Made by a program: the position numbers and the translations under genes
Origin: Pirellulaceae bacterium
GTDB lineage: Bacteria; Planctomycetota; Planctomycetia; Pirellulales; Pirellulaceae
Length of the DNA: 18,918 nt
Assembly: GCA_030748485.1 (NCBI GenBank)
Contig: JASMLW010000598.1
Location: 1-18,918 of the forward strand
Reading direction: 5' to 3'
The notes under the pieces: generated by a model
What the model was told of the DNA's origin: nothing
Database searches by the model: none
The model's input: the letters and a program-made list of their open reading frames with translations, nothing else
Shown: positions 1,411 through 18,163 of the stretch, piece by piece
Layout of the letters: every line of letters starts with the position of its first letter
Numbering within the stretch: the first letter of the stretch is position 1

Positions 1411-1456
1411 CGATGGCCTCGTAAATCAGACGTTCAATTGACAGCGATGACTCGAT

Positions 1457-4400
1457 CTACTTCGTCAAATAGGCGAACAAGTCGCGGATCTGCTGGGGCT
1501 GGAGTTTGTCGAGCGCATTGTCGGGCATCAGAGAGACAGGCGACTCGCGCAGCGTGGCGATGTCGCCGCGGCTCACTCGGGTGCGGCGATCTTCCGCGTC
1601 GACGATCGTAACGCTGGCCGCATCTTGAGCGGCGATCAGGCCTGTCAACACGCGACCGCCCGTCGTCTCGAGGATGTAATTGATGTACTGGCGTTTCACG
1701 ACGGCGCCCGGGTCGACGAGGTTGGCGAGCAATGCGGCCCGGTCTTTGCGGTTCGCCTGCGTCAAGTCGGGACCGATCTTGCCGCCCTCGCCAAACAACT
1801 GATGGCACGCGCCGCAGTTCTTCTTGAAGAGCTCCTTCCCTCGCGCCGCACTGCCGCCGCCGGCGCGAAGATCATTGTTGTAGCGCCGCATGGCGGCCAG
1901 CTTTGCCTCGGTGCTGCCGGAGCCAATCCTGCCCCAGTGCTTCTTGACGAGTTTGTCGATCCGCGGATCGCCGAACGCCGCCAGCACGCGCAGCTGCGCG
2001 ACAGGGATCGTGTCGGGCTTGATCGCGCCCGCGTCGACCAGTTCCAGTAGCCGCCGAGCCGACGCCGAGTTGCTCAACAATGCGCGGCGAGCGCTCGTTT
2101 GCACTGGCGGTGAGAAACGAGGGTAGTTTTCCAGCACCGCGTCCGACAGCGATTCGGACGGAAAACGACTCAGCGCGTCAAGCGCCGCCAGTTGTGTAGT
2201 CGCGTTTTCGTTTGGTGAAAGGAAACGAAGAAGCAACGGCGCTTCGTCTTTCGCAATGAAGCCGGCGGCGAGCCGCAGTGTCGTCTGTTTCTCCGCTTCG
2301 GATGGCAGTCTTTCGTCGGCAAGCCGCTGCAACAACAGGTCTCTCGCTTCTTCGACGCCACAGGTCAGCGCTAATCGCCAAGCCGGCGCATTCGTGGGTT
2401 GCGGTTTCCATTTCCCGTAGATGAACCGGCGCAGCGATCCGCTCACCCTTTTGAATTGCCGCTGTTGCGGGGTGGCGTCGCCAGTGGCGGCGGCGAAGTC
2501 GGCGAACAGCCCGCCCTGCCCGATCGTCGCCAACCCACTCGCCCGCTCGTCCAGTCCCAGTTGCAAGGCGGCCAACGCCGATCCTTGTTGATTCGCCGGC
2601 GCGAGACTCAATAACTTCGCGCAGGCGTCGTAGCCGGCCGCCGTGCCCTCGGCCGCATACCGGCGGATCAGTCGCCGCAGATTGCCGCGGTACGAAGCCC
2701 GCGACCACAGCGCCTTGTCGCCAAACTCGGCCAGCACTTCTTCTCGGTCACTGACCGACTTGCTCTCGATCGCCCACCACAGTAGCCACGCGATCCGTTC
2801 GTCGGCGTCGTCAATTCCGCGGTCGAGTAGTTCGGTGACGATTGCCAGGCCCGTCTCGGCCGGGAGTCGTTTTGCCGTAGCCGCTAACTGAGCTCGCACG
2901 ATCGCACTTGGTTCTTTCCTCGCCAGTCGCACCAGCGCCGCGGAGACTTCGGACGAAACCTGCTTTCGGTCGCCCAGCAATCGAACCGTCCAACTCCTCA
3001 CGTAAGGATAGGGATGCGACAAGCACTCCATTGCGAACGGATCGTCCAACTCGCCGCAAGCGTGCAGCGTCCACACGCCTTGCAGCGCATCGCGCGGCCG
3101 GTCGCGATTTGCGGCGAGAGCCTTGAGCCGCGGAGCGACCGATGCATCTCGACGTTCGGCTAAAAGCACTCTTGCTCGCGTGGCGAACCAACGATTGTTG
3201 TGGGTGAGTAAATCGACGAGTTGGTCGCTCGATTGTTTGCGGAGGTCGAGCGCCGCCGGTGAAGACCTGGCCGCGCTCAACTCGGCCGGCAACTCGGCCG
3301 ACGAGATCCGGTAGATGCGGCCGTTGCCGCGGTCCCAGCGAGCGTCGGGGTCGGGGTGCGCGGTGCGGCGATCGTAGAAGTCGCAGACGAAGATCGAACC
3401 GTCCGGCGCGATGCACAAGTCGGTCGGTCCCGACCAAGTGTCGCCGACATCCAGCAGCGGTCGCTCGTAGCTCGCCGCCACGGTCGCTCCCCGCGGCTCG
3501 ATTCGCCAAGACGAAACCGTGTGGCCGAGAAAGTTGCCGGCGATGAACTTTCCGCGGTACGACTTTCCCAACGCGTCGGCCGCGTAGATCGTGCCGCCCG
3601 TCGGTGGTCCCCCCGGAACCTGGTCGCGTTGCAGTGGCGCGAAATGATGGTAGGCGAACAGATTGTGCAATGGCCCGTGCTTGCCAAAGCTCTTGTAGTA
3701 GTAGCCGCCCTGCACGGCGTGCACGAACGGTCCGCCGTTTGTCGAGTAGAACAGGTTGCCGTCTTCATCGAATGTCAGACCGTACGTATTGCCGCCGCCC
3801 TCGCAGAACAACTCGAACTCACGACTTCGCGGATGGTATCGCCAGCAACCCTGTTGGAACTCGATTCCTCGGATGCGGCAGGTCGTCGTGCTGCCGTTGA
3901 CTCCGTAGAGCCAGCCGTCCGGACCCCATGTCAAATGATTGGCGAATGACTGCGCGTCTTCCATTCCAAACCCGCTGAGCAGCACATGGGGATCGCTGTC
4001 AGGCCGGTCGTCTCCGTCCGCGTCGGGATAGAAAAGCAGATAGGGAACTTGCAATACGAAAACTCCGCCATAGCCGAACTCGACCCCCGTGCAGAGGTTC
4101 AGTCCCGAGACAAAATCGGTAAACGTGTCAGCGCGGCCATCGCCGCTGCGGTCTTCGACGATCGTGATGCGGTCGGCTCCGCGAGGTCCGTGCGGCGGCG
4201 GTTTGGGCACGCGATCGTAGACGGTGCGCGACCAGCGATCGACTCTGACTCGTTTCAATCCGGCCGGGTTGGGGTATTGGAGATATTGAATCGTCCACAG
4301 CCGACCCCGATCGTCGAACTTGACGAAGATCGGTTGCCTGATATCCGGCTCATGAGCGAACAGTTGCGCGTGCAGCCCGGCGGCTGGACGGAGTGCTTTC

Positions 4401-4504
4401 GCCGCCGCGGCTGGGGCGTATCCTTGACCGCGAGCAACTCCGATTGCGGCAAAGAGAAGCGCGATCGCTGCAGATCCAAGGCGAGGCAAATTCATGAGCA
4501 GCAT
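1457..4504 (-). CDS. Planctomycete-type multidomain protein: signal peptide, PQQ/sugar-dehydrogenase-like beta-propeller ('membrane-bound dehydrogenase domain'), HEAT repeats, C-terminal mono-heme cytochrome c
   Basis: C-terminal NCGACHQLFGEGGKIGPDL (CxxCH) with a distal-Met region SLMPDN. Central HEAT-like helical repeats. N-terminal propeller motifs GPDGWLYGVNGS and APDGSIFVCDFYD. The ORF is open to 4849, but the likely true start is MLLMNLPRLGSAAIALLFAAIGVARG (ATG at 4504), which gives a signal peptide. A 4849 start would add 115 aa of R/S-rich low-complexity sequence. Confidence 0.75.
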   Translation of the reverse strand: MLLMNLPRLGSAAIALLFAAIGVARGQGYAPAAAAKALRPAAGLHAQLFAHEPDIRQPIFVKFDDRGRLWTIQYLQYPNPAGLKRVRVDRWSRTVYDRVPKPPPHGPRGADRITIVEDRSGDGRADTFTDFVSGLNLCTGVEFGYGGVFVLQVPYLLFYPDADGDDRPDSDPHVLLSGFGMEDAQSFANHLTWGPDGWLYGVNGSTTTCRIRGIEFQQGCWRYHPRSREFELFCEGGGNTYGLTFDEDGNLFYSTNGGPFVHAVQGGYYYKSFGKHGPLHNLFAYHHFAPLQRDQVPGGPPTGGTIYAADALGKSYRGKFIAGNFLGHTVSSWRIEPRGATVAASYERPLLDVGDTWSGPTDLCIAPDGSIFVCDFYDRRTAHPDPDARWDRGNGRIYRISSAELPAELSAARSSPAALDLRKQSSDQLVDLLTHNNRWFATRARVLLAERRDASVAPRLKALAANRDRPRDALQGVWTLHACGELDDPFAMECLSHPYPYVRSWTVRLLGDRKQVSSEVSAALVRLARKEPSAIVRAQLAATAKRLPAETGLAIVTELLDRGIDDADERIAWLLWWAIESKSVSDREEVLAEFGDKALWSRASYRGNLRRLIRRYAAEGTAAGYDACAKLLSLAPANQQGSALAALQLGLDERASGLATIGQGGLFADFAAATGDATPQQRQFKRVSGSLRRFIYGKWKPQPTNAPAWRLALTCGVEEARDLLLQRLADERLPSEAEKQTTLRLAAGFIAKDEAPLLLRFLSPNENATTQLAALDALSRFPSESLSDAVLENYPRFSPPVQTSARRALLSNSASARRLLELVDAGAIKPDTIPVAQLRVLAAFGDPRIDKLVKKHWGRIGSGSTEAKLAAMRRYNNDLRAGGGSAARGKELFKKNCGACHQLFGEGGKIGPDLTQANRKDRAALLANLVDPGAVVKRQYINYILETTGGRVLTGLIAAQDAASVTIVDAEDRRTRVSRGDIATLRESPVSLMPDNALDKLQPQQIRDLFAYLTK

Positions 4505-4751
4505 TGTAGCTGGCGTGTTGCAAGAGTGGAGATCGCGGCTGGATGTGAACTCCGAAGTCGTGCGAAGTCCAGGCTCCGCACTGACTTTGCGCGACCTGAA
4601 AGATCGCGCGCCCCGCGTTCCGGCGTTTTTCGCCCTTACTTCAACCTGATAGGCTATCGGCCTCGTCATTCGCATTTTGAAGCGTTGAGGATGCGGGGTT
4701 TCGCTCAATCGAACGTCTACTGAGCGGAAGCGCGCTTTGTGAGTGGCACTG

Positions 4752-4761
4752 CCACTAGTGG
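4752..4761. promoter_or_regulatory. Perfect 10-bp palindrome CCACTAGTGG (with flanking AGTGG..CCACT inverted arms) in the divergent control region upstream of the symporter gene
   Basis: Seen directly. A possible operator. No functional evidence. Confidence 0.2.
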
Positions 4762-4813
4762 GCTGATCAACAGCCGGGCAGCACGCGCCAGAATAGCCAG
4801 TGGAAGGACTCCT

Positions 4814-6442
4814 ATGAACTCTGACGAGAAACAGAACAACCACAGCCACCGTTTGACGATCGCCATCGTCGTCGCGATCGTGGCGGCCATTGGGCTAGCG
4901 ATCGTGGCGCCCCGGTTTGCCATGGGGTTTGAGGTCGGCGGGCAAGTGTTCCTGCGGCTGTTGCAGATGGTGGTCGTGCCGCTCGTGATGGCGAGCGTGA
5001 TGAGCGGCATTATTGGGCTCGGCGACGTCCGCAAACTTGGACGGCCAGGAGCCGCCGCGGTTTCCTACTACCTTTGCACGACGGTGTTTGCGGTCATCAC
5101 GGGGCTGATCGTTGTCAACATCATCAACCCGGGTGTCGGCATCGACAAAAAGCTGGTGGAGGATGCGCGCAAAGAGGGAGCTCGCGAAGTCAAACGCGCC
5201 CAAAGCGGACATGGGCCGCACGGGTTTCGCTTTGACGGCGGAATCCGCACTTACGCGACCACGGCCGTGGTCAGCGATACTCTCGAACTTCACGACGCCG
5301 ACGAATCAAAAGTCCGCATCCGCGTCGTCCACTCGCCGTCCGCCGACCAGGCAGCCCGCGTGTGGCTCGAGCACCGCGCCGACGAGGAGGAGGAGTGGGC
5401 GCGGGCGGGCGACCCGTTCACGGCGGAAACAGAGAACGCCGAGCACTCTTTCACCGCGACGGTGCCGGAGGGTGCGAAGGAGATCCGACTACATTTCGAA
5501 CCGGGTTCGCCTGGGTCAACTGTCGTAGCGGCCGAGCTGGAAGCGGGACCGCCAACGATTGGCGACATCTTCAAGAATCTCGTGCTGATGCTGTTCACCG
5601 ACAACCTGCTCGGCTCGATGGTCGGCATCAACCTACTGCCGTTGATCGTATTCAGTATTGTCTTCGCCGGGATGTTGACGACCATGGGCGCGAAGGCTCA
5701 GGTCATCTCCGACCTGGTGATCGGCATCAATGACGCGTTGTTGAATTTCATTTTGCTGTTGATGAAGCTGGCCCCGATTGGAATCTTCTGTTTGGTCGCG
5801 GCCCGCTTCGGCAAAGCCCAAGCAGACGGTCAGTTCCTCAAACTGCTGCAAGTTCAGTTTTACTACATGACGACAGTGCTGAGTGGGCTGGGTTTGCACG
5901 TCGTGATCACGTTGCCGCTGCTGCTGTGGATCTTCACGCGGCGGAACCCAATCAAGTTCGTCGTGCAGATGTCGCAAGCCGTGTTGACGGCGTTTTCGAC
6001 TGCCAGTTCCACGGCGACGCTACCGGTCACGATGGAATGCGCGGAGCGGAAAGCGGGCGTGTCGAAGCGGTCGACAGAGTTCGTGTTGCCGCTGGGCGCG
6101 ACAATCAACATGGACGGTACAGCGCTGTACGAGGCGGCGGCGGCGATTTTCATCGCCCAGTCGTACGCCGTGATCAATCCGGACTTCCAATTGACACTGA
6201 TGGCGCAAGCCACGATTGCCGTCACGGCGACGCTGGCCGCGATCGGAGCCGCCGGAATTCCCGAGGCGGGGCTGGTGACGATGCTCATCGTGCTCAACGC
6301 CGTCGGTCTGCCGATTGAGATGATCGGACTGATCTTGCCCGTCGACTGGTTGTTGGATCGTTTCCGCACGGCCGTCAACAATTTCGGCGATTCGGTGGGA
6401 GCGGCGATCGTCGATCAGACATTCCCTGAGGCGGCGGCCTAG
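4814..6442 (+). CDS. Dicarboxylate/amino-acid:cation symporter (DAACS / SLC1 / GltP-GltT family) with an atypical ~135-aa acidic insertion in the TM3-TM4 loop
   Basis: Family hallmarks VVPLVMASVMSGI, GATINMDGTALYEAAAAIFIAQ and AIGAAGIPEAGLVTM. ORF opens at 4739, but the start at 4814 is preferred (GGAAGGA RBS 7 nt upstream). Confidence 0.8.
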   Translation: MNSDEKQNNHSHRLTIAIVVAIVAAIGLAIVAPRFAMGFEVGGQVFLRLLQMVVVPLVMASVMSGIIGLGDVRKLGRPGAAAVSYYLCTTVFAVITGLIVVNIINPGVGIDKKLVEDARKEGAREVKRAQSGHGPHGFRFDGGIRTYATTAVVSDTLELHDADESKVRIRVVHSPSADQAARVWLEHRADEEEEWARAGDPFTAETENAEHSFTATVPEGAKEIRLHFEPGSPGSTVVAAELEAGPPTIGDIFKNLVLMLFTDNLLGSMVGINLLPLIVFSIVFAGMLTTMGAKAQVISDLVIGINDALLNFILLLMKLAPIGIFCLVAARFGKAQADGQFLKLLQVQFYYMTTVLSGLGLHVVITLPLLLWIFTRRNPIKFVVQMSQAVLTAFSTASSTATLPVTMECAERKAGVSKRSTEFVLPLGATINMDGTALYEAAAAIFIAQSYAVINPDFQLTLMAQATIAVTATLAAIGAAGIPEAGLVTMLIVLNAVGLPIEMIGLILPVDWLLDRFRTAVNNFGDSVGAAIVDQTFPEAAA

Positions 6443-6653: not shown

Positions 6654-7298
6654 GTGGAAGTAATTGAAACACTAACGACTGGCCCCAATCTTTTTGCATC
6701 CATCGTGATGGGTGTCGTGCTGATCTACTGGCTGATGGTGATCGCCGGCGCCGCTGATATCGAATTGTTTGATTTTGACATCGATATCGGCGCCGACGTT
6801 GATATCGATGGTGACATCGACGTCGGTTCGGCAACCAGCGTCGGTTTTGTTGTGCTACGTTTTCTCAACATTGGCCAAGTGCCGTTGGTCATTTGGGGCA
6901 GTGTGTTCGTGATCGGTTTTTGGATCAGTTCGCTCGCTTTTACGCTCTTTTTCGACGACCGGACTACGTACTCGGATTACACAACGGTGGCGTTGTACGT
7001 GTTGCGCAACTTCGCCATCGGCGTGTTCGGCGCGAAGTTGATTACCACTCCCATGGTTCCGTGGTTCGAGATCGACGAAGGACCGAAGCCGGAGGAGTTG
7101 GTCGGAAAGTCGTGCGAGGTGACGGCTCCGCTAAAAGCTGATAGCCGCGGACAAGCGAGTTTTCGGACGAACGCGGCGCCGCTGTTGATTCACGTGAGAT
7201 GTGAGAAAGACGAATTCCGCAAGGGCGACACCGCGCGGATTGTTGCATACGACGCAGAAACAAAGACCTACCTGATTGAATCGGTTCGCGAGGTATAA
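6654..7298 (+). CDS. NfeD-like (YqiJ / YuaF-type) membrane protein with a C-terminal OB-fold domain; flotillin operon partner
   Basis: 214 aa. Hydrophobic N-terminal helices. Acidic DIELFDFDIDIGADVDIDGDIDVG loop. Two to three TM segments, then a soluble C-terminal domain (KSCEVTAPLKADSRGQASFRTNAAPLLIHVRCEKDEFRKGDTARIVAYD) typical of the NfeD short form. Stop is 2 nt before the flotillin ATG. GTG start at 6654 (an alternative ATG lies at 6708). Confidence 0.6.
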   Translation: MEVIETLTTGPNLFASIVMGVVLIYWLMVIAGAADIELFDFDIDIGADVDIDGDIDVGSATSVGFVVLRFLNIGQVPLVIWGSVFVIGFWISSLAFTLFFDDRTTYSDYTTVALYVLRNFAIGVFGAKLITTPMVPWFEIDEGPKPEELVGKSCEVTAPLKADSRGQASFRTNAAPLLIHVRCEKDEFRKGDTARIVAYDAETKTYLIESVREV

Positions 7299-7300
7299 CC

Positions 7301-9427
7301 ATGGAAATCTTGATCTACATCGGCATTACGGTTGGCGCTATCGTCGTCATTCTCGGCGGCCTTGGAGTCGCGCTGGCTCGCTTCTACAAGAAGGTCGGGC
7401 CCGAAGAGGCGCTCGTCCGAGCCGGCACGGGGCAACTCAAGACCGTCACTGGCGGCGGTATGTGGGTCGTGCCCATCTTCCACCGTGTGGAGAACATGGA
7501 CCTGACTCTCAAGCGGATTGAGATCGCTCGCGATGGCCACGACGGTCTGGTCTGCAAAGACAACATTCGAGCCGATATCAAGGTCGCCTTCTTTGTTCGC
7601 GTCGACAAAGATCCCGACAAGATTAAAGAAGTCGCTCAGTCGATCGGCTGCACGCGAGCCTCGGATCACTCGACATTGGTCGACCTGTTTGACGCCAAGT
7701 TCTCCGAAGCGCTGAAGACGGTCGGTAAGTCATTCGACTTTGTGCAGCTTTACGAGGAACGCGATAACTTCAAAGGCGAAATCCTCAAAGTCATCGGCAC
7801 CGACCTAAACGGCTACGCGCTCGACGATTGTGCGATCGATTACCTCGAACAGACTCCGGTCGAGATGCTCAACCCGAGCAATATCCTCGACGCTGAAGGA
7901 ATCAAGAAGATCACCGCGCTGACGGCCAAAGAGAAGATGCTCGAGAACGAGATCACGCGGGAGAAAGAGAAGACGCTCAAGAAGCAGGACGTCGAAGCTC
8001 AGGAAGCCATCCTCGAACTCGAACGACAGCGAGTTGAAGCTGTCCAAAAGCAAGAGCGCGAGATCGCTACGATTACAGCTCGCGAAAAAGCCGAGGCTCG
8101 CAAGGTTGAGCAAGAGCAGACGCTGATCTCCGAACGAGCTCGAATCTCGACCGAAGAAGAAGTCGGCGTGGCGGAAGAAAACAAACAACGTCAAGTGCTT
8201 GTCGCCTTGCGGAACAAAGAACGCACCGATCAAGTCGAGTTGGAACGCGTGCAGCGCGACCGCGACTTGGAAATGACGGAACGCGTACGAGTCGTCTCGT
8301 TGGCCGACATCGACAAAGACAAGGCGATCGAAGTCGAGAAACGCAACATCCAGGAAGTCATTCGCGAACGCGTCGCCGTGGAAAGAGCCGTCGTCGAAGA
8401 GCAAGAGCGGATCAAGGACACGGAAGAGTTCGCCGGAGCCGATCGGGCTAAGCGAGTCACCGTGACCGCTGCTGAGATGACCGCCCAAGAGTCGTTGGTG
8501 AAGGAAGTCAAAGCCGCCGAAGCAGCCAAGACGTCGTCTGAACTGCTCGCCGAGAAGACTGTCATCGAAGCCGAAGCTGGGCGCAAGGCGGCCGAAAAAG
8601 AAACGCATGCGACCAAGATGTTGGCCGAAGCGGCTCAAGCAGAGAAAGCCGCGCCGGGATTGGCCGACGCACAAGTCCAGGTCGCCACCGCCGAGGCCAT
8701 CGAGAAGACCGGACTGGCCGAAGCGACCGTCACCGAGAAGACCGGTTTGGCCGAAGCCACCGTCATCGAAACGAAAGCCGTCGCCGAAGCCAAGGGAGAC
8801 GAAGCTAGAGCGGTTGCGATCGAAAAGACTGGTTACGCCGAAGCCACCGTCATGCAACAGAAGTTCAGCAGCGAAGCGACGGGTATCCAAGAGAAGGCCG
8901 AAGCGATGAAGTTGTTCGACGGCGTTGGCCGCGAGCACGAAGAGTTCAAACTGCGGCTGAACAAAGATAAGGACATTGAAATCGCCGCCATCGGCGCCCA
9001 GCAAGAGATCGCGGAAGCTCAGGCGGGCATCGTCGGCGAGGCTGTCAAGCAGGCTCGCATCGACATCGTGGGCGGCGATTCGCAGTTCTTCGACCAGATT
9101 ATCAACGCGGTCAAGGGCGGCAAAGCGGTCGATCGCTTCGTGCACAACAGCGAAACGCTGACGGACATGAAGAACACGTTCTTCAACGGTAATCCGGAGT
9201 ACTTCCGCGATAAGTTGCAGGACCTGGTCGGGCAGTTCGACTTGAGCACCGACGATATCAAAGATCTCTCCATCGCGGCGCTGATCGCCAAAATGATGGG
9301 GCTGACCAACAGCGATGAAGTTCGCGGCGAACTCCGCCGGCTCGCCGAGATGGCGCAAAGCGTCGGACTGGCTGGCTCGAACTTCTCGTCCCTACGGCTC
9401 GGTTCAACAGAGAAGAGCAACTCTTAG
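7301..9427 (+). CDS. Flotillin-family SPFH (band-7) protein (FloT / YqiK-like) with an extended coiled-coil and EA-repeat region
   Basis: N-terminal TM helix IYIGITVGAIVVILGGLGVAL, then YKKVGPEEALVRAGTG and an SPFH core. Long E/K/R coiled-coil. C-terminal Ala/Glu 'EA' repeats EKTGLAEATVTEKTGLAEATVIETKAVAEAKGDEARAVAIEKTGYAEATV alignable to B. subtilis FloT, plus the conserved C-terminal flotillin tail. GAGGT RBS. The in-frame repeats appear as ~33-bp DNA repeats at 8697-8850. Confidence 0.85.
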   Translation: MEILIYIGITVGAIVVILGGLGVALARFYKKVGPEEALVRAGTGQLKTVTGGGMWVVPIFHRVENMDLTLKRIEIARDGHDGLVCKDNIRADIKVAFFVRVDKDPDKIKEVAQSIGCTRASDHSTLVDLFDAKFSEALKTVGKSFDFVQLYEERDNFKGEILKVIGTDLNGYALDDCAIDYLEQTPVEMLNPSNILDAEGIKKITALTAKEKMLENEITREKEKTLKKQDVEAQEAILELERQRVEAVQKQEREIATITAREKAEARKVEQEQTLISERARISTEEEVGVAEENKQRQVLVALRNKERTDQVELERVQRDRDLEMTERVRVVSLADIDKDKAIEVEKRNIQEVIRERVAVERAVVEEQERIKDTEEFAGADRAKRVTVTAAEMTAQESLVKEVKAAEAAKTSSELLAEKTVIEAEAGRKAAEKETHATKMLAEAAQAEKAAPGLADAQVQVATAEAIEKTGLAEATVTEKTGLAEATVIETKAVAEAKGDEARAVAIEKTGYAEATVMQQKFSSEATGIQEKAEAMKLFDGVGREHEEFKLRLNKDKDIEIAAIGAQQEIAEAQAGIVGEAVKQARIDIVGGDSQFFDQIINAVKGGKAVDRFVHNSETLTDMKNTFFNGNPEYFRDKLQDLVGQFDLSTDDIKDLSIAALIAKMMGLTNSDEVRGELRRLAEMAQSVGLAGSNFSSLRLGSTEKSNS

Positions 9428-9442
9428 TAACCCATGAGGCTG

Positions 9443-9470
9443 GGCGGCGAGCCGCGATTAGCTCGCCGCC
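9443..9470 (+). other. Strong intercistronic stem-loop (10-bp perfect GC-rich stem, 8-nt loop) 16 nt after the flotillin stop. No U-tract.
   Basis: GGCGGCGAGC-cgcgatta-GCTCGCCGCC. Candidate partial terminator or mRNA stability/processing element that would set flotillin versus giant-ATPase stoichiometry. Confidence 0.5.
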
Positions 9471-9532
9471 TGACGCCGGTTCCGCACTGCGGCGACGACT
9501 GGCGGCCACCTCACGGGTGAAGGAACGGAGCC

Positions 9533-12500
9533 ATGGCAGAAGCCACCACAACAGACGCCGCGCCTGAGGCGCAACTTGAAGGCGGCGCATACGAGATCAT
9601 TCGCAATCGACTTGTCACACAAGGCAAGGAGTTGCGAGATCGGTTGCACCAACTGAACGACGCCCGCAAGGCCGTCTTCGGCGCAATCGACACCGAATTG
9701 CTCGGCACCGACCGGATCTCGACCAACCACAATTGCACGCCCCGCGACATGGTGGCGATCGGCGATCGCTTCATCTTTGGATACAACGTTCAGTTCGGCC
9801 TCAAGTCCGAGATCTCGCTGGCCGACGTCTTCGCCGTTTACGAGTATCGCGATCGAGGTTTTCACGAACAGCCGCTCGAGTTTATTCAGGTCGGCAACTT
9901 CGAGCGAGATTTCAAAGAGATCTACCGCTACTACAAGAATGCGACGTTCGCCAAGTTCTTTTTGACGGGCCCTTATCTCTTCATGGTGTTTCAGGTCGGA
10001 CGCGACAGCACCGACATCAAGGCGCTGAAGTTCCTGATCAATGACGATACTCTGACGTATCTCGACAATCGCAGCGATCACGAGGTTAAATACCCGTCGC
10101 AGCACGAGTTCGAATGGACCCGGACGACTCGCGATCAGCACCGACACGGCGCGCACCCCCACATCTCGCTTCACGATCGTGTGTTCGTCGAGACGGTTGG
10201 CGGCGACCTGACGATCAAAGTCGAGAACAACACGCAGTCCGGCGAAGGCATCTACGCCGAGGATGTCGAACATACGGATCAGACTCTCGACGACGCCGAG
10301 ATCTACTACGCGATCGTCGGCAATCTGATCTTGATGAAGATTCGCCCCTATCAGGAAGAGGCGTTTCGCTACATCGTCTTCAACGAGAAGACACAGCAAG
10401 CTCGGCGCATCGACGCCATCGCCGACGCTTGCGTCTTGCTGCCGGACGATCACGGGTTGATCTTCTCGCGCGGCTACTACTTGCAAACCGGCGAATTCAA
10501 GACGTTTGAGAGTGACGTTACTGAAATGCTGTTTGAACGCCGGCTGGCGGCGTCGAACGGCGAAGACTACATGTATGTCTTCTACAATCACCAGCTCGGC
10601 GTTTACGTCCTACTGACGTACAACGTGATCGAACAGCGAGTCGAGACGCCGATTATCGTGCACGGCTTCACGCTGTTCGACAGCGGCGAAATGGTCTGCT
10701 TTAAATCGCAGGACGAACCACAGAAACACCACGCGATTCAGATTTGGAAGACGCCGTATGTCGGCGAGGGGTTCGAGACCCACGAGGAGACGGATTCCTA
10801 TATTTACAAGATCGGCAACCGCGATCTCGTCCGCGGCATGGCCGAGTGCTACGAAGTTCTCTCCCTGATCGACAAAGAGGACACCTACGCCGGGTTGTAC
10901 GTCGATCTGGTGAAGAAGACCGGCGACATCATCGACTCGTACTTCTGGATCGACTCGACCGAGACGCATCGGCCGGCGGAAGTGCTCGGCCAGATTCGCG
11001 GAGCCGCTGAGTCGGCGGTCGAAGAGTTCGAAAAGGTCGTCCGGCTCAAACAAAACACGCTCGGCGAAACCAAACGAGTACAGCAGCACTGCCAGGAGAT
11101 CATGGCCGAGCTGCACCGCAAGCGATTCGAGCACATTCTCGAGTTCGTCCAATCGCTCGGCGACCTGCGAGCCGCCCGCGGCGACATTATCTCGCTCCGC
11201 GAGTTGCGCTACATCGACGGCGGCCTCGTCGACAAGCTGGAGGAAGACGTCGCGGAGAACGCCGAGAAACTCGCGCAACGCTGCGTCGAGTTCCTGTTGC
11301 GCGACGACTCGTTGGCTCCCTACGTCGCAAAGGTCGCCGAACAGCGCGGCCGCATCGACGGCCTGGAAAAAGTCAGCGAGGCGAAGGAGCTGGAGGAGGA
11401 GATCGCCTCCAGCGCCGGTGAACTCGAGATGCTGATCGACATCGTCAGCAACCTGAAGATCGACGACGCCACGCAGCGAACGGCGATCATCGACAGCATT
11501 TCTGGAATCTTCGCGGGAGTGAACCAGGCGCGGTCGGCGCTGAAGAACAAGACCAAAGAACTCGCTTCGGTCGAAGGCGTCGCCGAATTCAATTCACAAC
11601 TGAAGCTGCTCAATCAAAGCGTCGTCAACTATCTCGACGTTTGCGACTCCCCCACCAAGTGCGAAGAGTTCCTCACCAAGATGATGGTGCAGCTGGAGGA
11701 GCTCGAGGGCCGCTTCGCCGAGTTCGACGAGTTCGTGGTGCAGCTGACCGACAAACGCGAGGAGATCTACAACGCGTTTGAGTCGCGGAAGCTGGCGCTG
11801 GTCGAAGCTCGTAACAAGCGAGCCACCTCGCTGATGAGCGCGGCGAATCGGATCTTGAAAGGCATCAAGACTCGCGTCGACAACATGGAGTCGATCAACG
11901 ACATCAACGGGTACTTTGCATCCGATTTGATGATCGAAAAGGTTCGCGATCTGTGTGAAGAGCTCAAGGAACTCGACGATTCGGTCAAGGTCGACGACAT
12001 CCAGAGCCGGATGAAGTCGGTTCGCGAGGACGCCGTCCGCCAGCTCAAAGATCGACAGGATCTGTTTGTCGGCGGCGAGAATGTCATCAAGTTCGGCAAC
12101 CACCAATTCAATGTCAACGTCCAGGCTCTCGACTTGACGATGGTGTTGCGTGACGGCGAGATGAACTTGCATCTGACCGGCACGAATCTGTTTGAGCCGA
12201 TTGAGAATGAGGAGCTGATCTCGCTGCGCGAGGTTTGGGATCAGGAAGTCGTCAGCGAGAACAAGAGTGTCTATCGGGCTGAGTACTTGGCGTACTTGAT
12301 GTTGCGGGCCGTCCGCGGCGACGAATTCGATCAGTCGGCCGCGCAGATACTGAAGCTCACTCCTGACGAGCGTGTCGCGATGGTTCAGCGCTTCATGGGG
12401 CCGCGGTACAGCGAGGCGTACGTGAAAGGCGTCTCCGATCACGACGCCGCGTTGCTGCTCGGCTCACTGCTCGAGATGGATCAAACGATCGGCATGTTGC

Positions 12501-14932
12501 GCTACCACGCCCGCGCTCGCGCCATTGCCGCCGCGTTTTGGAATTGGTTCGCCGATCCTGAATGGCGCGAGCTAATGGGAGCCCGGCTGAGAGGATTGGG
12601 CAGGATCACGGACCTGTTCCCCGATGCTCGCGAGCGACAGAAATATATCGATTCGATTCGCGCCGCGATCGGCGACTACAACGCGCAATCGAAAATGTTC
12701 GACGATGAATTCATCGACGAAGCGGCGACCTATCTCTGCCACGAGCTAAGCGATCGGGACCACTTTACCGTGAGTCGCAATGCGGCGACGCTCCGCGACG
12801 AATTCCAAGGGCATCTCAAACACGCCGGCCACGCTGAGGCGTTCGCCCACTCGGTCGCCGAAGTCCGCGAAGACGCGGCCAGTTGGTTCACGCTGGTGCG
12901 TGACTGGGCGTCGGCGTTTATTGAAAGACGCGAGGCGCGAGAAGACGATCTCGACTACGTCGACGAACTGGCCGTGCTCTTGATGCGCGAGCAAGTGGAT
13001 GTGGGACACATTGTCGATGGCGATGTCGCCAAGGCGATCGGTGGCATGTCGGGAGCTCACGGGGTCATCGAAGGCGGCCAATATCAGCTGCACTTCAATC
13101 ACTTCCTGCAAAAGCTACACGAGTACGAACGAGTTACCGCGCCGAGGTTTCAGCGGTACATCGAATTGAAGAAAGAGATCGTCGAGGAAGGTCGCCAGGG
13201 AATGCGGCTCGACGAGTTCCGTCCCCGCGTGCTCACGTCGTTCGTCCGCAACAAACTGATCGATTCGGTCTACCTGCCGCTCGTGGGCGACAATCTAGCC
13301 AAGCAGATGGGCGTCGCCGGCGAGCAGAAGCGGACGGACTTGATGGGCCTGCTGCTGCTCATCTCACCGCCCGGGTACGGTAAGACGACGCTGATGGAGT
13401 ACATCGCCAATCGACTCGGCCTGATCTTCATGAAGATCAACGGCCCGGCGATTGGGCATCACGTGACATCGCTCGATCCCGTCGAAGCTCCCAACGCCGG
13501 AGCGCGGGAAGAGGTCATGAAGCTGAATCTCTCTCTCGAGATGGGCGATAACGTGATGATCTATCTCGACGATATTCAACACTGCAATCCGGAGTTCCTG
13601 CAGAAGTTCATCTCGCTCTGCGATGCGCAGCGTAAGATCGAAGGCGTCTATAAGGGCAAAACGCGGACCTACGACCTGCGAGGTCGAAAGGTCGCCGTTG
13701 TCATGGCCGGCAACCCCTACACGGAGAGCGGCGAGAAGTTCCAGATCCCCGACATGCTTTCGAACCGGGCCGATATCTACAACCTGGGCGAGATCATCGG
13801 CGATTCGGCGGACGCCTTCGAGATGAGTTACCTGGAGAACTCGTTGACGTCCAACCCGGCGCTCAACAAGCTCGCCTCGCGAAGCCAGCAAGATGTCTAC
13901 GGAGTGATTCAGATCGCCGAGCGCGACAGTCGCGAAGGCGTCGATCTCGAAGGCAACTACTCGCTCGAAGAGGTCGATGAATTCGTTCGCGTCATGAAGA
14001 AGCTGTTCCGCGTCCGCGACGTCGTGCTGCGCGTGAACCGGCAGTATATCGAGTCGGCCGCGCAGGCGGACGAGTATCGCACCGAGCCGCCGTTCCTGCT
14101 TCAGGGATCGTATCGAAACATGAACCGCATCGCCGAAAAAGTGGTGCCGATCATGAACGATGAAGAGCTGGAGTCTCTGATCCTGAGCAACTACGAGAAC
14201 GACGCCCAGACGTTGACATCCAATACTGAGTCGAACCTGCTCAAGTTGCGCGAGATGCTGAGTATTCTGACCAAGGAAGAGGAACGGCGGTGGGAGGACA
14301 TCAGACGGACGTTCTCGCAGAACGTCAAACTCAAAGGCGTCGGCGCCGACGACCAATTCGGTCAGGTCATCGTGCAGCTCAGTTCGTTCAGCGACGGGCT
14401 CGACTCCTTGCGGCGCGCTGTCGCTGACGGCGTCGAACGGCTGGCCGAGCAAGACGACGAAGGGAAGTCGGTCGAAGTTGTCGTCGGCGAGCTGAGCGGA
14501 CTGCGAGAAGGGCTCACCGCCATCAAGGGCGCGCTTGAACAGGCGGGAACGGACGAGGCGATCGGCGCGCTGGCCGCTCAACTTCGCGAAGCCGTTCCTG
14601 TCCCCGCGCTCCCCGCTGCGTTGGCGGAACCGGTTCCCAGCGAGCCATTTCCCGTCGAGCTGGCGCGCAATGAGACGACGGAAATGCACCGCATCACCGT
14701 CCAGCACAAAGTGCCGCGCAGCATCCTGGATGTCGTCCGCACGCAGTTCGAAGTCATGGAGGGTTGGATGAGTCCGCTGCTGAGCACAGCCAAGGAAAAC
14801 TCGGCTGGCATCACCCAACTTCGCAACTCGGTCGACGAGTGCCTGCGCAGCTACGCGCTGTTGCTGAGCGAACTCGAAAGCGCGAAGCCCTTGAAAAAGG
14901 CGAAGAAGACGACCAAGAAGAAACGCAGCTAG
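9533..14932 (+). CDS. Giant (1,799 aa) soluble protein: N-terminal beta-rich region (~430 aa), ~800-aa coiled-coil/helical region, a single AAA_5 (MoxR / midasin / dynein-type) ATPase module, a helical C-terminal region and a polybasic tail
   Basis: A 5.4-kb ORF cannot occur by chance at this GC content. Walker A LLLISPPGYGKTTL (nt ~13365-13390), Walker B VMIYLDDIQH (~13553-13580), AAA_5-type sensor VVMAGNPYTESGEKFQIPDMLSNRADIYNLG (~13700-13790). No TM segments. C-terminal tail AKPLKKAKKTTKKKRS. RBS AAGGAACGGAG. Confidence 0.85.
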   Translation: MAEATTTDAAPEAQLEGGAYEIIRNRLVTQGKELRDRLHQLNDARKAVFGAIDTELLGTDRISTNHNCTPRDMVAIGDRFIFGYNVQFGLKSEISLADVFAVYEYRDRGFHEQPLEFIQVGNFERDFKEIYRYYKNATFAKFFLTGPYLFMVFQVGRDSTDIKALKFLINDDTLTYLDNRSDHEVKYPSQHEFEWTRTTRDQHRHGAHPHISLHDRVFVETVGGDLTIKVENNTQSGEGIYAEDVEHTDQTLDDAEIYYAIVGNLILMKIRPYQEEAFRYIVFNEKTQQARRIDAIADACVLLPDDHGLIFSRGYYLQTGEFKTFESDVTEMLFERRLAASNGEDYMYVFYNHQLGVYVLLTYNVIEQRVETPIIVHGFTLFDSGEMVCFKSQDEPQKHHAIQIWKTPYVGEGFETHEETDSYIYKIGNRDLVRGMAECYEVLSLIDKEDTYAGLYVDLVKKTGDIIDSYFWIDSTETHRPAEVLGQIRGAAESAVEEFEKVVRLKQNTLGETKRVQQHCQEIMAELHRKRFEHILEFVQSLGDLRAARGDIISLRELRYIDGGLVDKLEEDVAENAEKLAQRCVEFLLRDDSLAPYVAKVAEQRGRIDGLEKVSEAKELEEEIASSAGELEMLIDIVSNLKIDDATQRTAIIDSISGIFAGVNQARSALKNKTKELASVEGVAEFNSQLKLLNQSVVNYLDVCDSPTKCEEFLTKMMVQLEELEGRFAEFDEFVVQLTDKREEIYNAFESRKLALVEARNKRATSLMSAANRILKGIKTRVDNMESINDINGYFASDLMIEKVRDLCEELKELDDSVKVDDIQSRMKSVREDAVRQLKDRQDLFVGGENVIKFGNHQFNVNVQALDLTMVLRDGEMNLHLTGTNLFEPIENEELISLREVWDQEVVSENKSVYRAEYLAYLMLRAVRGDEFDQSAAQILKLTPDERVAMVQRFMGPRYSEAYVKGVSDHDAALLLGSLLEMDQTIGMLRYHARARAIAAAFWNWFADPEWRELMGARLRGLGRITDLFPDARERQKYIDSIRAAIGDYNAQSKMFDDEFIDEAATYLCHELSDRDHFTVSRNAATLRDEFQGHLKHAGHAEAFAHSVAEVREDAASWFTLVRDWASAFIERREAREDDLDYVDELAVLLMREQVDVGHIVDGDVAKAIGGMSGAHGVIEGGQYQLHFNHFLQKLHEYERVTAPRFQRYIELKKEIVEEGRQGMRLDEFRPRVLTSFVRNKLIDSVYLPLVGDNLAKQMGVAGEQKRTDLMGLLLLISPPGYGKTTLMEYIANRLGLIFMKINGPAIGHHVTSLDPVEAPNAGAREEVMKLNLSLEMGDNVMIYLDDIQHCNPEFLQKFISLCDAQRKIEGVYKGKTRTYDLRGRKVAVVMAGNPYTESGEKFQIPDMLSNRADIYNLGEIIGDSADAFEMSYLENSLTSNPALNKLASRSQQDVYGVIQIAERDSREGVDLEGNYSLEEVDEFVRVMKKLFRVRDVVLRVNRQYIESAAQADEYRTEPPFLLQGSYRNMNRIAEKVVPIMNDEELESLILSNYENDAQTLTSNTESNLLKLREMLSILTKEEERRWEDIRRTFSQNVKLKGVGADDQFGQVIVQLSSFSDGLDSLRRAVADGVERLAEQDDEGKSVEVVVGELSGLREGLTAIKGALEQAGTDEAIGALAAQLREAVPVPALPAALAEPVPSEPFPVELARNETTEMHRITVQHKVPRSILDVVRTQFEVMEGWMSPLLSTAKENSAGITQLRNSVDECLRSYALLLSELESAKPLKKAKKTTKKKRS

Positions 14933-15019: not shown

Positions 15020-15931
15020 ATGGTGGCCATGAAACGCGTCGACGCTCTACCCCTGCAGTACGAATTCTCCCGCGCGGCGGAGCCCCGATTGCACGTCGCG
15101 CCCGGGGAGACCATCGAAGTCGAGGCGGAAGACGCTCTGTCGGGCCAGATTCGCAATCCCGGCGATCAACGCGACAAAAGTCGCGCGCCGTACAGCAATC
15201 CGGTGGCCGGACCAATCTATGTTGATGGAGCTCAGCGCGGGGACTCGATTGCCGTGCGGATCGAGACGATCGAGTCGCGCGATGGTCAGTGCGCGACGTA
15301 CACGGGACATCCGCGGCGGCTCGCCGAATGGCTTGGACTCGATGTTCCACCCGGCGGTCATGTCTGTCCTATTCGCGACGGCCTGATCCACTGGAGTGAC
15401 GAGCTGACGATTCCCTGGGCTCCGATGCTGGGCTGCATTGGCGTCGCGCCGGATTGGGGTGTCCCCACGACGGGGCCCGCCGGCGCTCATGGCGGCAACT
15501 TGGATTTGGTGGAGGTAAGGCCCGGCTGCACGGTCTACCTGCCCGTGTTTGTGCCCGGCGGACTGCTCTACTTGGGCGATGCGCACGCCGCGATGGGGCA
15601 CGGTGAGTTGTCGGCGACGGGACTCGAGATGGCGTCTGTTTCCACCGTGACGGTTGACCTGATCAAGGGCGCCGCGGCACCCGGCCCGCGGATCGACACG
15701 GGTGAGGAACTCGTCGCCGTCGCCACGGGGTCGCCGATGGAGCATTCGATTGCCGAAGCCTACGCGCAACTCATCCTCTGGATGGAGACAGAATACGGTT
15801 GGGACCGCTGGTTGGCGTACGACTTGTTGACCCATGTCGGCCAACTCTCCGTCGGCTACTACGGCATCGGAACGGTTGGAGCGAAAATCGCCAAGCGCTA
15901 CTTACCGCTTCGCAGCTCGCCGCATGAGTAG
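15020..15931 (+). CDS. Acetamidase/formamidase (FmdA_AmdA) family amidohydrolase
   Basis: 303 aa. NPVAGPIYVDGAQRGDSIAV, AHGGNLD and YLGDAHAAMGHGELSATG motifs recalled from the family. An alternative start lies at 15029. Confidence 0.6.
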   Translation: MVAMKRVDALPLQYEFSRAAEPRLHVAPGETIEVEAEDALSGQIRNPGDQRDKSRAPYSNPVAGPIYVDGAQRGDSIAVRIETIESRDGQCATYTGHPRRLAEWLGLDVPPGGHVCPIRDGLIHWSDELTIPWAPMLGCIGVAPDWGVPTTGPAGAHGGNLDLVEVRPGCTVYLPVFVPGGLLYLGDAHAAMGHGELSATGLEMASVSTVTVDLIKGAAAPGPRIDTGEELVAVATGSPMEHSIAEAYAQLILWMETEYGWDRWLAYDLLTHVGQLSVGYYGIGTVGAKIAKRYLPLRSSPHE

Positions 15932-15932
15932 T

Positions 15933-16255
15933 GTCGCCGAATCAAATCGCCGCGCGGTGTTGAGTGGAACGTCCATTGTCGCGACGCTTTGTACGATGGC
16001 CTTCCGAGGCCGTCGAATGCGGGTTATCCCCAAGAGTCCCCACCAGATTCGTGCTCAGCGTCGAATCAAATCGCCGCGCGGTGTCGAGTGGAACGTCCAT
16101 TGTCGCGACGCTTTGTACGATGGCCTTCCGAGGCGCCTTCCGAGGCCGTCGAATGCGGGTTATCCCCGAGAGTCCCCACCAGATTCGTGCTCAGCGTCGA
16201 ATCAAATCGCCGCGCGGTGTCGAATGGAACGTTCATTGTCGCGACTTCGTCGCGA
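15933..16255. repeat. Tandem repeat array: about 2.6 copies of a ~124-bp unit (unit 2 is 136 bp because of an internal 12-bp duplication cgccttccgagg; unit 3 is truncated and diverged) in the convergent intergenic region
   Basis: GAATCAAATCGCC unit landmarks at 15939, 16063 and 16199. Each unit contains the 8-bp palindromes CCGCGCGG and GTCGCGAC and a TGGAAC-N5-TTGTC motif. Unit 3 contains GAATGGAACGTT, identical to the first 12 nt of the window. Confidence 0.9.
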
Positions 16256-16258
16256 GGT

Positions 16259-16313
16259 CCTGCCCGGCAGGCAGCACCTACAGCAGGACCTACTGCAGGA
16301 CCTACTGGGACCT
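16259..16313. repeat. Palindrome CCTGCC-c-GGCAGG (16259-16271), then tandem 12-mer CAGGACCTACTG x2.5 (16284-16313), immediately 3' of the regulator stop
   Basis: Seen directly. A possible bidirectional terminator or structure between convergent genes. Confidence 0.6.
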
Positions 16314-16315
16314 GC

Positions 16316-18163
16316 TTACTCTCCTTTGGCGTCCAGTTTGTTGTAGAGGGTGCCGCGGCCGATCTCGAGAATGCGGCAGGCTTTGGTCTTGTTCCCGCCC
16401 ACTTGTTCGAGCACGTAGTGGATGTGCCTCCGCTCGGCCTCGCGCACCGACATCAGTTGCGGTGTCGGATTGGTGTCGCGCTGGTGGACGGGCATCCCCA
16501 GATCCTCCACCGTCACTTCATCGCCGCGGCCGAGCACGATCGCCCGCTCGATGGCGTTCCGCAACTCACGAACGTTGCCAGGCCAGCGATAACTGCGGAT
16601 TCCCTCGACCGCTTCGCGTGAAAACCGCTGGGGTCCGCGTCCCAACTGCGCGCGGAAGTGCTCCAGGAACAACGACGCCAGTTCAATGACGTCGTCGGCG
16701 CGCTCGCGGAGCGGCGGCATCTGGATGTCGATCACGCGGAGACGAAAGTAGAGGTCCTCGCGAAACTCCTTTTGACCGACGAGTTCAACGAGATCTCGGT
16801 GAGTTGCGGCGACGACGCGGACGTCGACCTTGATCGACTCCTCGCCGCCGAGCCGCTGAAAGGGGTGTCCCTCGAGTATCCGCAGCAACTTGGCCTGACA
16901 CGCCAGGCTCATCTCCCCCACTTCGTCCAGGAAGATCGTCCCGCGATGAGCTCGCTCGAATTGTCCGATGTGCCGGCGGTCGGCTCCAGTGAACGTGCCC
17001 ACTTCGTGCCCAAACAACTCGCTCTCCAACAACGACTCGCTAAAGGCGGCGCAGTTGACCGTCACGTAGGGTCCGTCTTTTCGTTCGCTGAGCTCGTGGA
17101 TCGATTGCGCGACCAACTCCTTGCCGGTGCCGCTTTCGCCCAAGACCAGCACGTTCGAACTGGTCGGACCGACGCGGGCGACTTGATCGAGCACGCGTTG
17201 CATCGCTTCGCTCGAGCCCGCCATTTGCGACTTCGAGTCGAGCCGGCGCTTGAGTTCCTCGTTCGCCTGCTCCAAACGCTCGCGATGCTCGACGTTCTCC
17301 AGCGCCGCTCCCATTTGGTGGGCGACGACGACGGCGAAGTCGAGATCGCTGCGAGCAAACGGATCTCGCTCCGGCTGCCGATGGCACTCGATCGCTCCCC
17401 GCACACTCGAACGGCCGGGAATCGGCACGCCGATGCCCGTTCCAACTGACAGAGGCGCGTCAGTGACCGTTTGGTCCTCGCTCCCCTGCGGCTTGTCGAT
17501 CAAGATCGCCTTGTCCTGCTCGACCGCCAGACTCGCCAACACATGCTCGTCGCGCGACTTGCCCCACGACGCGGCGCAACGCAACCGTCCGTCGGTGCCC
17601 GCCAACCAGATCGAGACCGCGTCGGGATCGACGCCGTCGACCAGTGCGTCCAAGGCGCAGCGGACCAACTCCGCCGGCGCCTGTGACTCGTGAAGCAGAT
17701 TGGCGACCCGGCAGAGAACGGCCGAATCTCGGACCACCCGCGATGCGCTGCGGCCCATCTTCTGTTCAACTAGTTTCGAGTGCGGGTCGTCGATCGGCAG
17801 CCGACCCATCATCGTCGTCGGGTGCAGCAATTCGGGCTTGAGAGAACTCGGCTCCTCGCCACCGGAACTCTCCGCAAACAGAATCAAGTGGTCGCCGATG
17901 CGCACCAGGTCCCCCGCCTCCAGCGTCCCCTGTTTGATCGGCTGTGTGTTGACAAAGGTGCCGTTCAAGCTGTCGGCGTCCCGCAGGTGCCAGCTCCCCG
18001 AACGATGGAAAATCTCCGCGTGCAGACGGCTCGCGCGGTCGTCGTCCAGAGGCAGATCACGCGTCGGATGGCGGCCGATCGTGACCGGATCCGGTCGCTC
18101 GGGGTCCAGACGCAACGTCGTCCCCGGATAGGCGCCGTTGAGCAACACAAGTGACCACGACAT
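16316..18163 (-). CDS. Sigma54-dependent transcriptional activator (bacterial enhancer-binding protein) with an N-terminal FHA domain, a central GAF-like domain, an AAA+ sigma54-interaction domain and a C-terminal Fis-type HTH
   Basis: FHA region TIGRHPTRDLPLDDDRASRLHAEIFHRSGSWHLRDADSLNGTFVN. AAA+ region VLVLGESGTGKELVAQ ... ESELFGHEVGTFTGA (GAFTGA variant) ... IFLDEVGEMS ... RVVAATHRDL. HTH region GGNKTKACRILEIGRGTLYNKL. GGGAGG RBS before the ATG at 18163. Confidence 0.9.
   Translation of the reverse strand: MSWSLVLLNGAYPGTTLRLDPERPDPVTIGRHPTRDLPLDDDRASRLHAEIFHRSGSWHLRDADSLNGTFVNTQPIKQGTLEAGDLVRIGDHLILFAESSGGEEPSSLKPELLHPTTMMGRLPIDDPHSKLVEQKMGRSASRVVRDSAVLCRVANLLHESQAPAELVRCALDALVDGVDPDAVSIWLAGTDGRLRCAASWGKSRDEHVLASLAVEQDKAILIDKPQGSEDQTVTDAPLSVGTGIGVPIPGRSSVRGAIECHRQPERDPFARSDLDFAVVVAHQMGAALENVEHRERLEQANEELKRRLDSKSQMAGSSEAMQRVLDQVARVGPTSSNVLVLGESGTGKELVAQSIHELSERKDGPYVTVNCAAFSESLLESELFGHEVGTFTGADRRHIGQFERAHRGTIFLDEVGEMSLACQAKLLRILEGHPFQRLGGEESIKVDVRVVAATHRDLVELVGQKEFREDLYFRLRVIDIQMPPLRERADDVIELASLFLEHFRAQLGRGPQRFSREAVEGIRSYRWPGNVRELRNAIERAIVLGRGDEVTVEDLGMPVHQRDTNPTPQLMSVREAERRHIHYVLEQVGGNKTKACRILEIGRGTLYNKLDAKGE

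Follow-up and report, generated by a model that had tools for sequence, protein, structure and literature searches.

The locus described herein is a three-gene module within an 18,918-nucleotide (nt) stretch of DNA from a Pirellulaceae bacterium (positions 1-18,918 of contig JASMLW010000598.1, GenBank assembly GCA_030748485.1); the window refers to this whole stretch of DNA. All three genes are located on the forward strand. They encode, in order, a predicted YqiJ/YuaF-type (NfeD-like) small membrane protein (6654-7298, 214 residues, GTG start), a flotillin-type SPFH scaffold protein (7301-9427, 708 residues), and a giant soluble AAA+ ATPase (9533-14932, 1799 residues, ∼200 kDa), which is referred to as the giant. 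At least ten bacterial phyla share the order YqiJ/NfeD-like, flotillin, giant.

The three open reading frames (ORFs), their 2-nt and 105-nt junctions, and a GC-rich hairpin were all found where the initial annotation had placed them. The junction between the YqiJ-like and flotillin genes reads ...GAG GTA TAA cc ATG, and a GAGG sequence lies within the final codons of the YqiJ-like gene, ahead of the flotillin ATG. Gene callers disagree on the start of the YqiJ-like gene: JGI places it at GTG 6654 (214 residues), and NCBI and Logan place it at ATG 6708 (196 residues, MGVVLIYW...). The claim that no reverse-strand gene interrupts the module was upheld by gene callers, which report only the three forward genes across the stretch in three independent assemblies of the same organism. 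Mechanical ORF calling does give long reverse-strand frames (e.g., 7805-9358 and 13364-14818), which are the shadow ORFs usual in GC-rich DNA.

The spacer between the flotillin gene and the giant gene (9428-9532) contains a stem-loop (9442-9471, forward strand) that starts 15 nt past the flotillin stop codon; its stem is made up of 10 Watson-Crick pairs and a single G-U pair, and its loop is 8 nt long. For the 111 nt that include the spacer (9425-9535), the folding energy is −54 kcal/mol (z = −2.8), and 0 of 200 shuffled sequences were as stable. We dropped the assignment of the hairpin as a classical intrinsic terminator because it is not followed by a T-run; a terminator scan gives no flag there. 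Stems of at least 9 base pairs occur in 20 of 31 related flotillin-giant spacers of 40 to 400 nt, as compared to 11.1 expected from shuffles, which is a weak enrichment. Stable hairpins 6 to 25 nt past the flotillin stop codon recur across phyla (spacers L013, L015, L020, L023, L046, L052, L067, and L075), and those in L023, L046, and L080 resemble true terminators with T-runs. Judged from the sequence, the hairpin may be a partial terminator or an mRNA stabilizer that sets the flotillin-to-ATPase ratio.

By its sequence, the product of the first gene is classed as a YqiJ/YuaF-type, NfeD-like protein. It scores 24.9 bits against Pfam YqiJ_N (cut-off 23) over residues 17-102, and 13 of 33 orthologues match YqiJ_N while one of the 33 matches NfeD (E 0.005). 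The NfeD OB-fold domain (PF01957) gave no match to the window's protein. When an orthologue profile was searched against PDB, the sole match was Bacillus subtilis YuaF (2k14), and it was weak (E 0.14). Hydrophobic segments are present in the N-terminal half at residues ∼13-31 and 62-96. The predicted layout is an N-terminal transmembrane region, an acidic Asp-rich loop, and a C-terminal OB-like domain.

The AlphaFold model of the second gene product consists of a transmembrane helix (residues 3-21, 7307-7363), an SPFH α/β domain (residues ∼27-190, 7379-7870, predicted local distance difference test (pLDDT) ∼75-84), and long helices that span ∼390 residues (residues 198-588, 7892-9064). These are followed by a subfamily-specific C-terminal part (residues ∼591-690, 9071-9370). 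A Foldseek search with the model returned the flotillin complex 9bq2 as the best PDB match (E 5e-9), with further matches to erlin, prohibitin, HflK/C, stomatin, and QmcA; all 39 PDB matches at E ≤ 1e-3 belong to the SPFH family or to vault. An identical protein carries the NCBI name flotillin family protein. At the level of sequence models, Pfam Band_7 (PF01145) gave no match to the window's flotillin even at E ≤ 1, and the NCBIfam FloT model scored 15.9 bits, far below its cut-off of 700. Positively charged residues (RFYKK) come right after the single transmembrane helix, and thus the bulk of the protein would be cytoplasmic. The first coiled-coil segment (residues 191-380, 7871-8440) is conserved across phyla like the SPFH domain, with a mean major-residue frequency of 0.74 versus 0.70 and 62 of 190 columns at 0.9 or above. 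This unusual conservation suggests a partner-binding or cage-wall constraint.

The third gene product matches Pfam DUF3686 at 623 bits (residues 33-471) and DUF7902 at 98.9 bits, and contains a single P-loop module. Both DUF models were matched by all 27 of a set of diverse giants. An AlphaFold model covering residues 1-1200 (mean pLDDT 83.9) has a helix (residues 19-49) ahead of an N-terminal β-propeller (residues 55-406, 9695-10750, pLDDT ∼90) that lies inside DUF3686. The propeller is followed by a long helical/coiled-coil arm, as delimited by DSSP on the model (residues 423-844, 10799-12064), within which DUF7902 is located (residues 592-676, 11306-11560), and by a small β domain (residues 851-889) and a helical domain (residues 915-1151; together 12083-12985). 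Foldseek matched the propeller to Elp1, CyRPA, tricorn, and prolyl oligopeptidase. Matches of the giant to dynein heavy chain and clathrin were set aside, since their TM-scores of ∼0.1 reflect long-helix or propeller resemblance, not homology. No transmembrane segment was found in the giant, where the maximum Kyte-Doolittle value is 1.23.

The single AAA+ module of the giant (residues 1236-1600, 13238-14332) contains the Walker A motif SPPGYGKTT (residues 1278-1286, 13364-13390), a Walker B Asp-Asp pair (residues 1346-1347, 13568-13573), the sensor-1 residue N1394, and R1412 as a candidate Arg finger. This region is the most conserved part of the protein (mean major-residue frequency 0.84), and the motif columns and R1412 are invariant in the 27 diverse giants. 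The Walker A motif has Ser in place of the first Gly, a substitution kept across the family, and the Walker B motif is DD (D1346, D1347) rather than DE and is followed by an invariant Q1349-H1350. Among the Pfam models, AAA_5 alone spans Walker A to sensor 1 (23.2 bits, cut-off 22, positions 2-127 of 139). All 27 diverse giants match AAA_5 (best E 1e-7), AAA, and AAA_22, and 25 of the 27 match RuvB_N. The AAA_5/MoxR-like reading given in the initial annotation is reasonable in view of the 27 AAA_5 matches, and the assignment is best described as borderline on sequence, as AAA, AAA_22, and RuvB_N match too. A family profile compared with PDB sequences aligned over only ∼36-67 residues round Walker A (RuvB, Rix7, NVL), leaving the AAA+ clade unclassified by this comparison; a single-sequence search also matched VCP/p97.

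The C-terminal region of the giant (residues 1601-1799, 14333-14929) is variable, and the last 200 residues have a mean major-residue frequency of 0.18 with 58% gaps. The lysine-rich tail LKKAKKTTKKKRS (residues 1787-1799, 14891-14929), once suggested to bind anionic lipids or nucleic acid, is present in the window but is no family feature. At least eight Lys or Arg residues in the last 20 occur in 5 of 79 giants, two of which are assemblies of the window's own organism. The tail was thus dropped as a lipid- or DNA-binding element.

The giant family has more than 4000 homologues, which form ∼1000 clusters at 50% identity and are found in at least 585 GTDB species representatives. Gene context was analyzed in the best-scoring 80 of these at least 585 loci: 33 from Bacteroidota, 20 from Verrucomicrobiota, 16 from Planctomycetota, 5 from Clostridia, 3 from Desulfobacterota, and one each from Kiritimatiellota, Lentisphaeria, and an unclassified organism. 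The ORFs of each locus were searched with hidden Markov models (HMMs) built from the window's proteins, and 62 loci had at least 3.2 kb of sequence upstream. The flotillin subfamily was found directly upstream of the giant and on the same strand in 59 of these 62 loci, and the YqiJ-like gene was also present in 53 of the 59. Giants are therefore anything but rare neighbors of flotillin and NfeD-like genes, and the proposal that the three genes form one conserved, co-directional module is borne out. Both genes are also found upstream of the most distant giant sampled (27% identity), where hhalign aligns the flotillin with a probability of 100. Annotated records from Streptomyces, Nonomuraea, Deinococcus, Pseudomonas fluorescens pQBR103, Proteus, Vibrio, Photobacterium, and Halomonas carry the trio as well, which adds Actinomycetota, Deinococcota, and Gammaproteobacteria to the phyla concerned. 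Between the flotillin and giant genes, the distance varies from an overlap of 11 nt to a spacer of 2.4 kb; in 24 of 59 loci it is at most 60 nt. The short spacers and gene overlaps found in many genomes argue for co-transcription. Flanking genes differ between genomes and are unrelated to one another.

To describe the pairing of the two larger genes from both sides, a plasmid collection was queried with the flotillin. The query matched 321 records, of which only 13 cover at least 71% of its length; these are exactly the 13 records that carry the giant, with the two genes adjoining. The other 308 records match only residues 27-391 at ∼30% identity, are of the generic YqiK type, and have no giant. 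Based on this reciprocal pairing (13/13) and the 308 partial matches without a giant, the partner of the giant is a dedicated flotillin subfamily. Pairwise identities of flotillin and giant correlate across 56 loci (r = 0.79), which shows joint inheritance, not physical contact. It should be noted that several PLSDB "plasmid" records are 4-12 Mb in size and evidently chromosomes (NZ_OL790811/12, NZ_LT559118, NZ_CP134663, and others), and thus plasmid-carriage counts for the flotillin-giant system are inflated.

The initial annotation regarded this gene combination as not previously described, which is incorrect. In a comparative-genomic survey of PspA (phage-shock) responses to membrane stress, Ravi et al. 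(mSystems 2024, PMC11237479; preprint 2020) described operons that join CesT/Tir-PspA with three further genes, encoding an AAA+ ATPase fused to an N-terminal β-propeller and a coiled coil, a flotillin, and a 3TM YqiJ/YuaF protein, along with more widespread "abbreviated" operons without PspA. The example in their Table S3, ANH61663.1 from Dokdonia donghaensis, has the same gene order as the window, and a chaperone-like assembly of membrane-linked complexes with PspA was proposed (PMC11237479). The operon is treated there in one comparative-genomics paragraph, with no structure, quantified linkage, or experiment (PMC11237479). The window agrees with this description in the three proteins, their architectures, and their order, whereas the full operon has an adjacent CesT/Tir-PspA, and the window has neither; a PspA HMM gave no match in the window. 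The window operon is thus an ordinary member, in abbreviated form, of an operon type already catalogued by comparative genomics. A full-text search found no paper that names DUF3686 or PF12458, nor one that brings YqiK, YqiJ, and the ATPase together.

The same association was recovered in our loci. PspA_IM30 is encoded in 17 Bacteroidota loci, in 16 of them upstream of the trio on the same strand and mostly adjoining the YqiJ-like gene. CesT_Tir_1 was found in 13 Bacteroidota loci and a divergent helix-turn-helix (HTH) gene in 15. Loci from Flavobacteriia and Cytophagia, whose giants are 46-55% identical to that of the window, have PspA, CesT_Tir_1, and the divergent HTH gene, matching Table S3 of PMC11237479. 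On these sequence grounds, the window's trio is orthologous to the operons that carry CesT/Tir-PspA. On plasmid pQBR103 (L086, NC_009444.1 85112-97641), the trio lies head to tail behind a yjf-like PspA/polyamine cluster of PspA, rhomboid, DUF2491, DUF350, DUF1190, and glutathionylspermidine-synthase-like genes, with MvaT/MvaU downstream on the opposite strand. In Proteus mirabilis (L089, 3681-5461), LemA and TPM-domain genes, both of membrane-associated, stress-linked families, are divergent and just upstream of the trio.

Known systems share parts of this architecture. Escherichia coli YqiJ-YqiK, B. subtilis YuaF(NfeD2)-FloT(YuaG), and Shewanella SO1376-SO1377 likewise have a YqiJ/NfeD-like gene just upstream of a gene for a flotillin that is anchored at its N terminus and has a long coiled coil. 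These pairs, however, have no giant ATPase, and their flotillins match only residues 27-391 of the window's flotillin at ∼30% identity. The extra C-terminal half of the window's subfamily co-occurs only with the giant and is absent from YqiJK-type pairs. SO1376/SO1377 was also considered as an experimental precedent and rejected: it belongs to the generic YqiJ/YqiK pairs and has a terminator of its own, and no ATPase partner is mentioned in the paper on it. HflK/C-FtsH and prohibitin-m-AAA combine an SPFH cage with an AAA+ machine at the membrane, and both are structural neighbors of the window's flotillin. The enclosure of an AAA+ machine by an SPFH cage is established for HflK/C-FtsH (PDB 7wi3 and 9cz2, both among the flotillin fold matches). 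FtsH is a membrane-anchored protease in a periplasmic cage, whereas the giant is soluble, has no protease domain, belongs to another AAA+ type, and would be associated with a cytoplasmic cage. The ESCRT-III/Vps4 and PspA-PspF systems each use an AAA+ ATPase to control a membrane-remodeling polymer, and the giant is linked genomically to PspA in some phyla. The giant differs in lacking an MIT domain and in falling outside the classical Vps4-type AAA proteins. With MoxR/AAA_5 (dynein-related) ATPases such as RavA, it shares the AAA_5 match from Walker A to sensor 1 that is common to all 27 giants, and by our own reading of the motifs its DDIQH...AGNPYTE..G..F.IP..L..R resembles the MoxR DEINR...ATQNP.E..G...LP.A.LDRF. 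MoxR proteins are ∼300-500 residues long and have VWA partners, whereas the giant is 1,799 residues long with a propeller and helical arms and has a borderline score; no VWA domain was found in the window's genes or in the conserved neighbors of the trio.

Our current hypothesis, which we hold with moderate confidence, is that the module encodes an ATP-driven machine under the cytoplasmic membrane that remodels flotillin and/or PspA assemblies in envelope stress. A membrane-stress or membrane-remodeling role was part of the initial proposal and is plausible, given PspA/CesT-Tir in the 17 Bacteroidota loci and the PspA/polyamine cluster on pQBR103. In such a machine, flotillin would be anchored by its one N-terminal helix and would form a cup- or cage-like assembly at the cytoplasmic face, as SPFH proteins do elsewhere, and the YqiJ-like protein would be its membrane partner. 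The giant would oligomerize via its AAA+ module, dock on the flotillin assembly via its propeller or arms, and use ATP to drive the assembly, disassembly, or remodeling of flotillin and/or PspA polymers where the membrane is stressed or damaged. As a result of the hairpin past the flotillin gene, the ATPase may be expressed at a lower level than the scaffold.

PspA is a bacterial ESCRT-III-like membrane-repair protein. A 2025 review notes that bacterial PspA has no known Vps4-like ATPase (PMC7619361). As a tentative extension of the remodeling hypothesis, it is conceivable that the giant is the missing bacterial counterpart of Vps4, i.e., a disassembly or remodeling factor for flotillin cages and/or PspA polymers that would dock on the subfamily-specific C-terminal half of flotillin.

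Several points weigh against a remodeling machine built from the trio. The synteny sample is biased to closer relatives (46-63% identity). Three giants have no flotillin or YqiJ-like gene nearby (L018, L024, and L033), and the YqiJ-like gene went undetected upstream in six flotillin-giant loci (L057, L062, L070, L076, L040, and L084). No PspA is adjacent to the trio in the Planctomycetota, Verrucomicrobiota, and Clostridia loci examined, and therefore the PspA link rests on a subset of lineages. The DD rather than DE in the Walker B motif means that hydrolysis by the giant may be slow or regulated, or may have a regulatory function. Lastly, no experimental study of any operon member was found in the literature.

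The main rival to the remodeling hypothesis is a client-processing machine, i.e., an SPFH-caged quality-control system like HflK/C-FtsH or prohibitin-m-AAA, in which the cage confines client membrane proteins and the giant extracts or unfolds them. The partnership of SPFH and AAA+ proteins is established, the HflK/C-FtsH structures are among the flotillin fold matches, and unfolded proteins are reportedly confined and stabilized by flotillin microdomains in Staphylococcus aureus (PMC11222466). The propeller seen in the model of the giant could bind a substrate or an adaptor. We nevertheless judge client processing to be unlikely, as the giant has neither a protease domain nor a transmembrane anchor and no protease gene is conserved in the neighborhood. 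Read from the translation, the segment at the pore-loop position (GHHVTSLDP) also appears unlike the unfoldase motif.

Other explanations are less probable still. If the module served in anti-phage defense, as the initial annotation suggested, or in abortive infection, the SPFH and YqiJ-like proteins would be the membrane sensor and the giant the effector. Conflict systems often include giant NTPases with propeller or repeat domains, but no nuclease, protease, TIR, Sir2, or other effector domain was found in the giants, and the match in PADLOC-DB 2.0 is limited to IetA over 30 residues of Walker A (E 9e-4). PspA is named after phage shock; no copies of the module, however, were found in 50,697 phage records or in IMG/VR contigs. 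The giant occurs in just 13 of 72,556 plasmid records, mostly megaplasmids, chromids, or mislabeled chromosomes. One orphan giant lies beside STAND NTPase/TPR genes and another beside a Uma2 nuclease-like gene, and DUF559 nuclease-like genes occupy four spacers, yet the flanking genes are metabolic or housekeeping and differ between genomes, and the correlation of flotillin and giant identities (r = 0.79) fits joint, largely vertical inheritance. A defense-island context, when checked, was likewise unsupported, and a role in defense is improbable. That the giant is a DNA-repair ATPase, with the adjacent flotillin incidental or regulatory, would be in line with its names in Pfam and NCBI (ATPase involved in DNA repair and DNA repair ATPase; another database name is MoxR-like ATPase) and with a weak RuvB_N match round Walker A. 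That similarity to RuvB spans only ∼36-50 residues at the P-loop, no helicase, nuclease, or DNA-binding domain was found in the giant, its conserved partners are membrane proteins, and no paper mentioning DUF3686 was found in the full-text search, which makes this reading highly improbable. The least credible explanation, to the point of being negligible, is that an unrelated large gene came to lie next to a YqiJK-type pair by chance. It could call on the 105-nt spacer with its strong hairpin, but is refuted by synteny in 59 of 62 genomes in many phyla and by the pairing of flotillin and giant both ways (13/13).

The flanks of the window's module (316-6442 and 15020-18163) are unrelated to it. 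They encode an isochorismatase-like protein (reverse strand), a DUF7133/HEAT/cytochrome c protein (reverse), an SDF dicarboxylate symporter (forward), which is the upstream neighbor of the trio, an acetamidase/formamidase-like protein (forward), and an FHA-GAF-sigma54 activator (reverse). The mechanical ORFs 1457-4849 (reverse) and 4739-6442 (forward) overlap only because their starts are over-extended; gene callers give 1015 and 542 residues. Elsewhere, the genes upstream of the orphan giants encode a STAND NTPase and a TPR protein (L018), Uma2 nuclease-like and TonB_C proteins (L033), and DUF2147 (L024). The six loci without a detected YqiJ-like gene are four from Verrucomicrobiota (L057, L062, L070, and L076), one from Rhodopirellula, and one from Lentisphaeria; against the Planctomycete-based HMM, the four Verrucomicrobiota flotillins score lower (∼470-580 bits) than those of L040 (1038 bits) and L084 (758 bits). 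Extra, variable ORFs occupy the 0.7-2.4 kb flotillin-giant spacers of Bacteroidota loci L017, L026, L030, L039, and L060 and of Verrucomicrobiota locus L055. These encode small lipoproteins or transmembrane proteins, with Y1-transposase-like genes in L026 and L055. A conserved fourth gene in the large Bacteroidota gaps was considered and dropped, as no ORF there is common to the loci. Just ahead of the giant gene, L019, L028, L029, and L066 have a DUF559 endonuclease-like gene. The hit P0097 (eukprot g33011.t1) belongs to a set of eukaryotic proteins. It shares 66% identity with the giant, and such closeness to a Pirellulaceae protein makes bacterial contamination its probable source.

The database name DNA repair ATPase for the giant is unsupported by the present findings. 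The dynamic control of bacterial flotillin and PspA assemblies is unsettled, and if the giant were the counterpart of Vps4, bacteria would have an energy-consuming cycle for membrane repair. The trio is present in tractable organisms, including Proteus mirabilis, Pseudomonas fluorescens pQBR103, Streptomyces, Deinococcus, and Flavobacteriia. With its wide spread (at least 585 species representatives), the one-to-one pairing of flotillin and ATPase, and these hosts, the module is a concrete and testable candidate for an energy-driven step in membrane-microdomain and membrane-repair biology.

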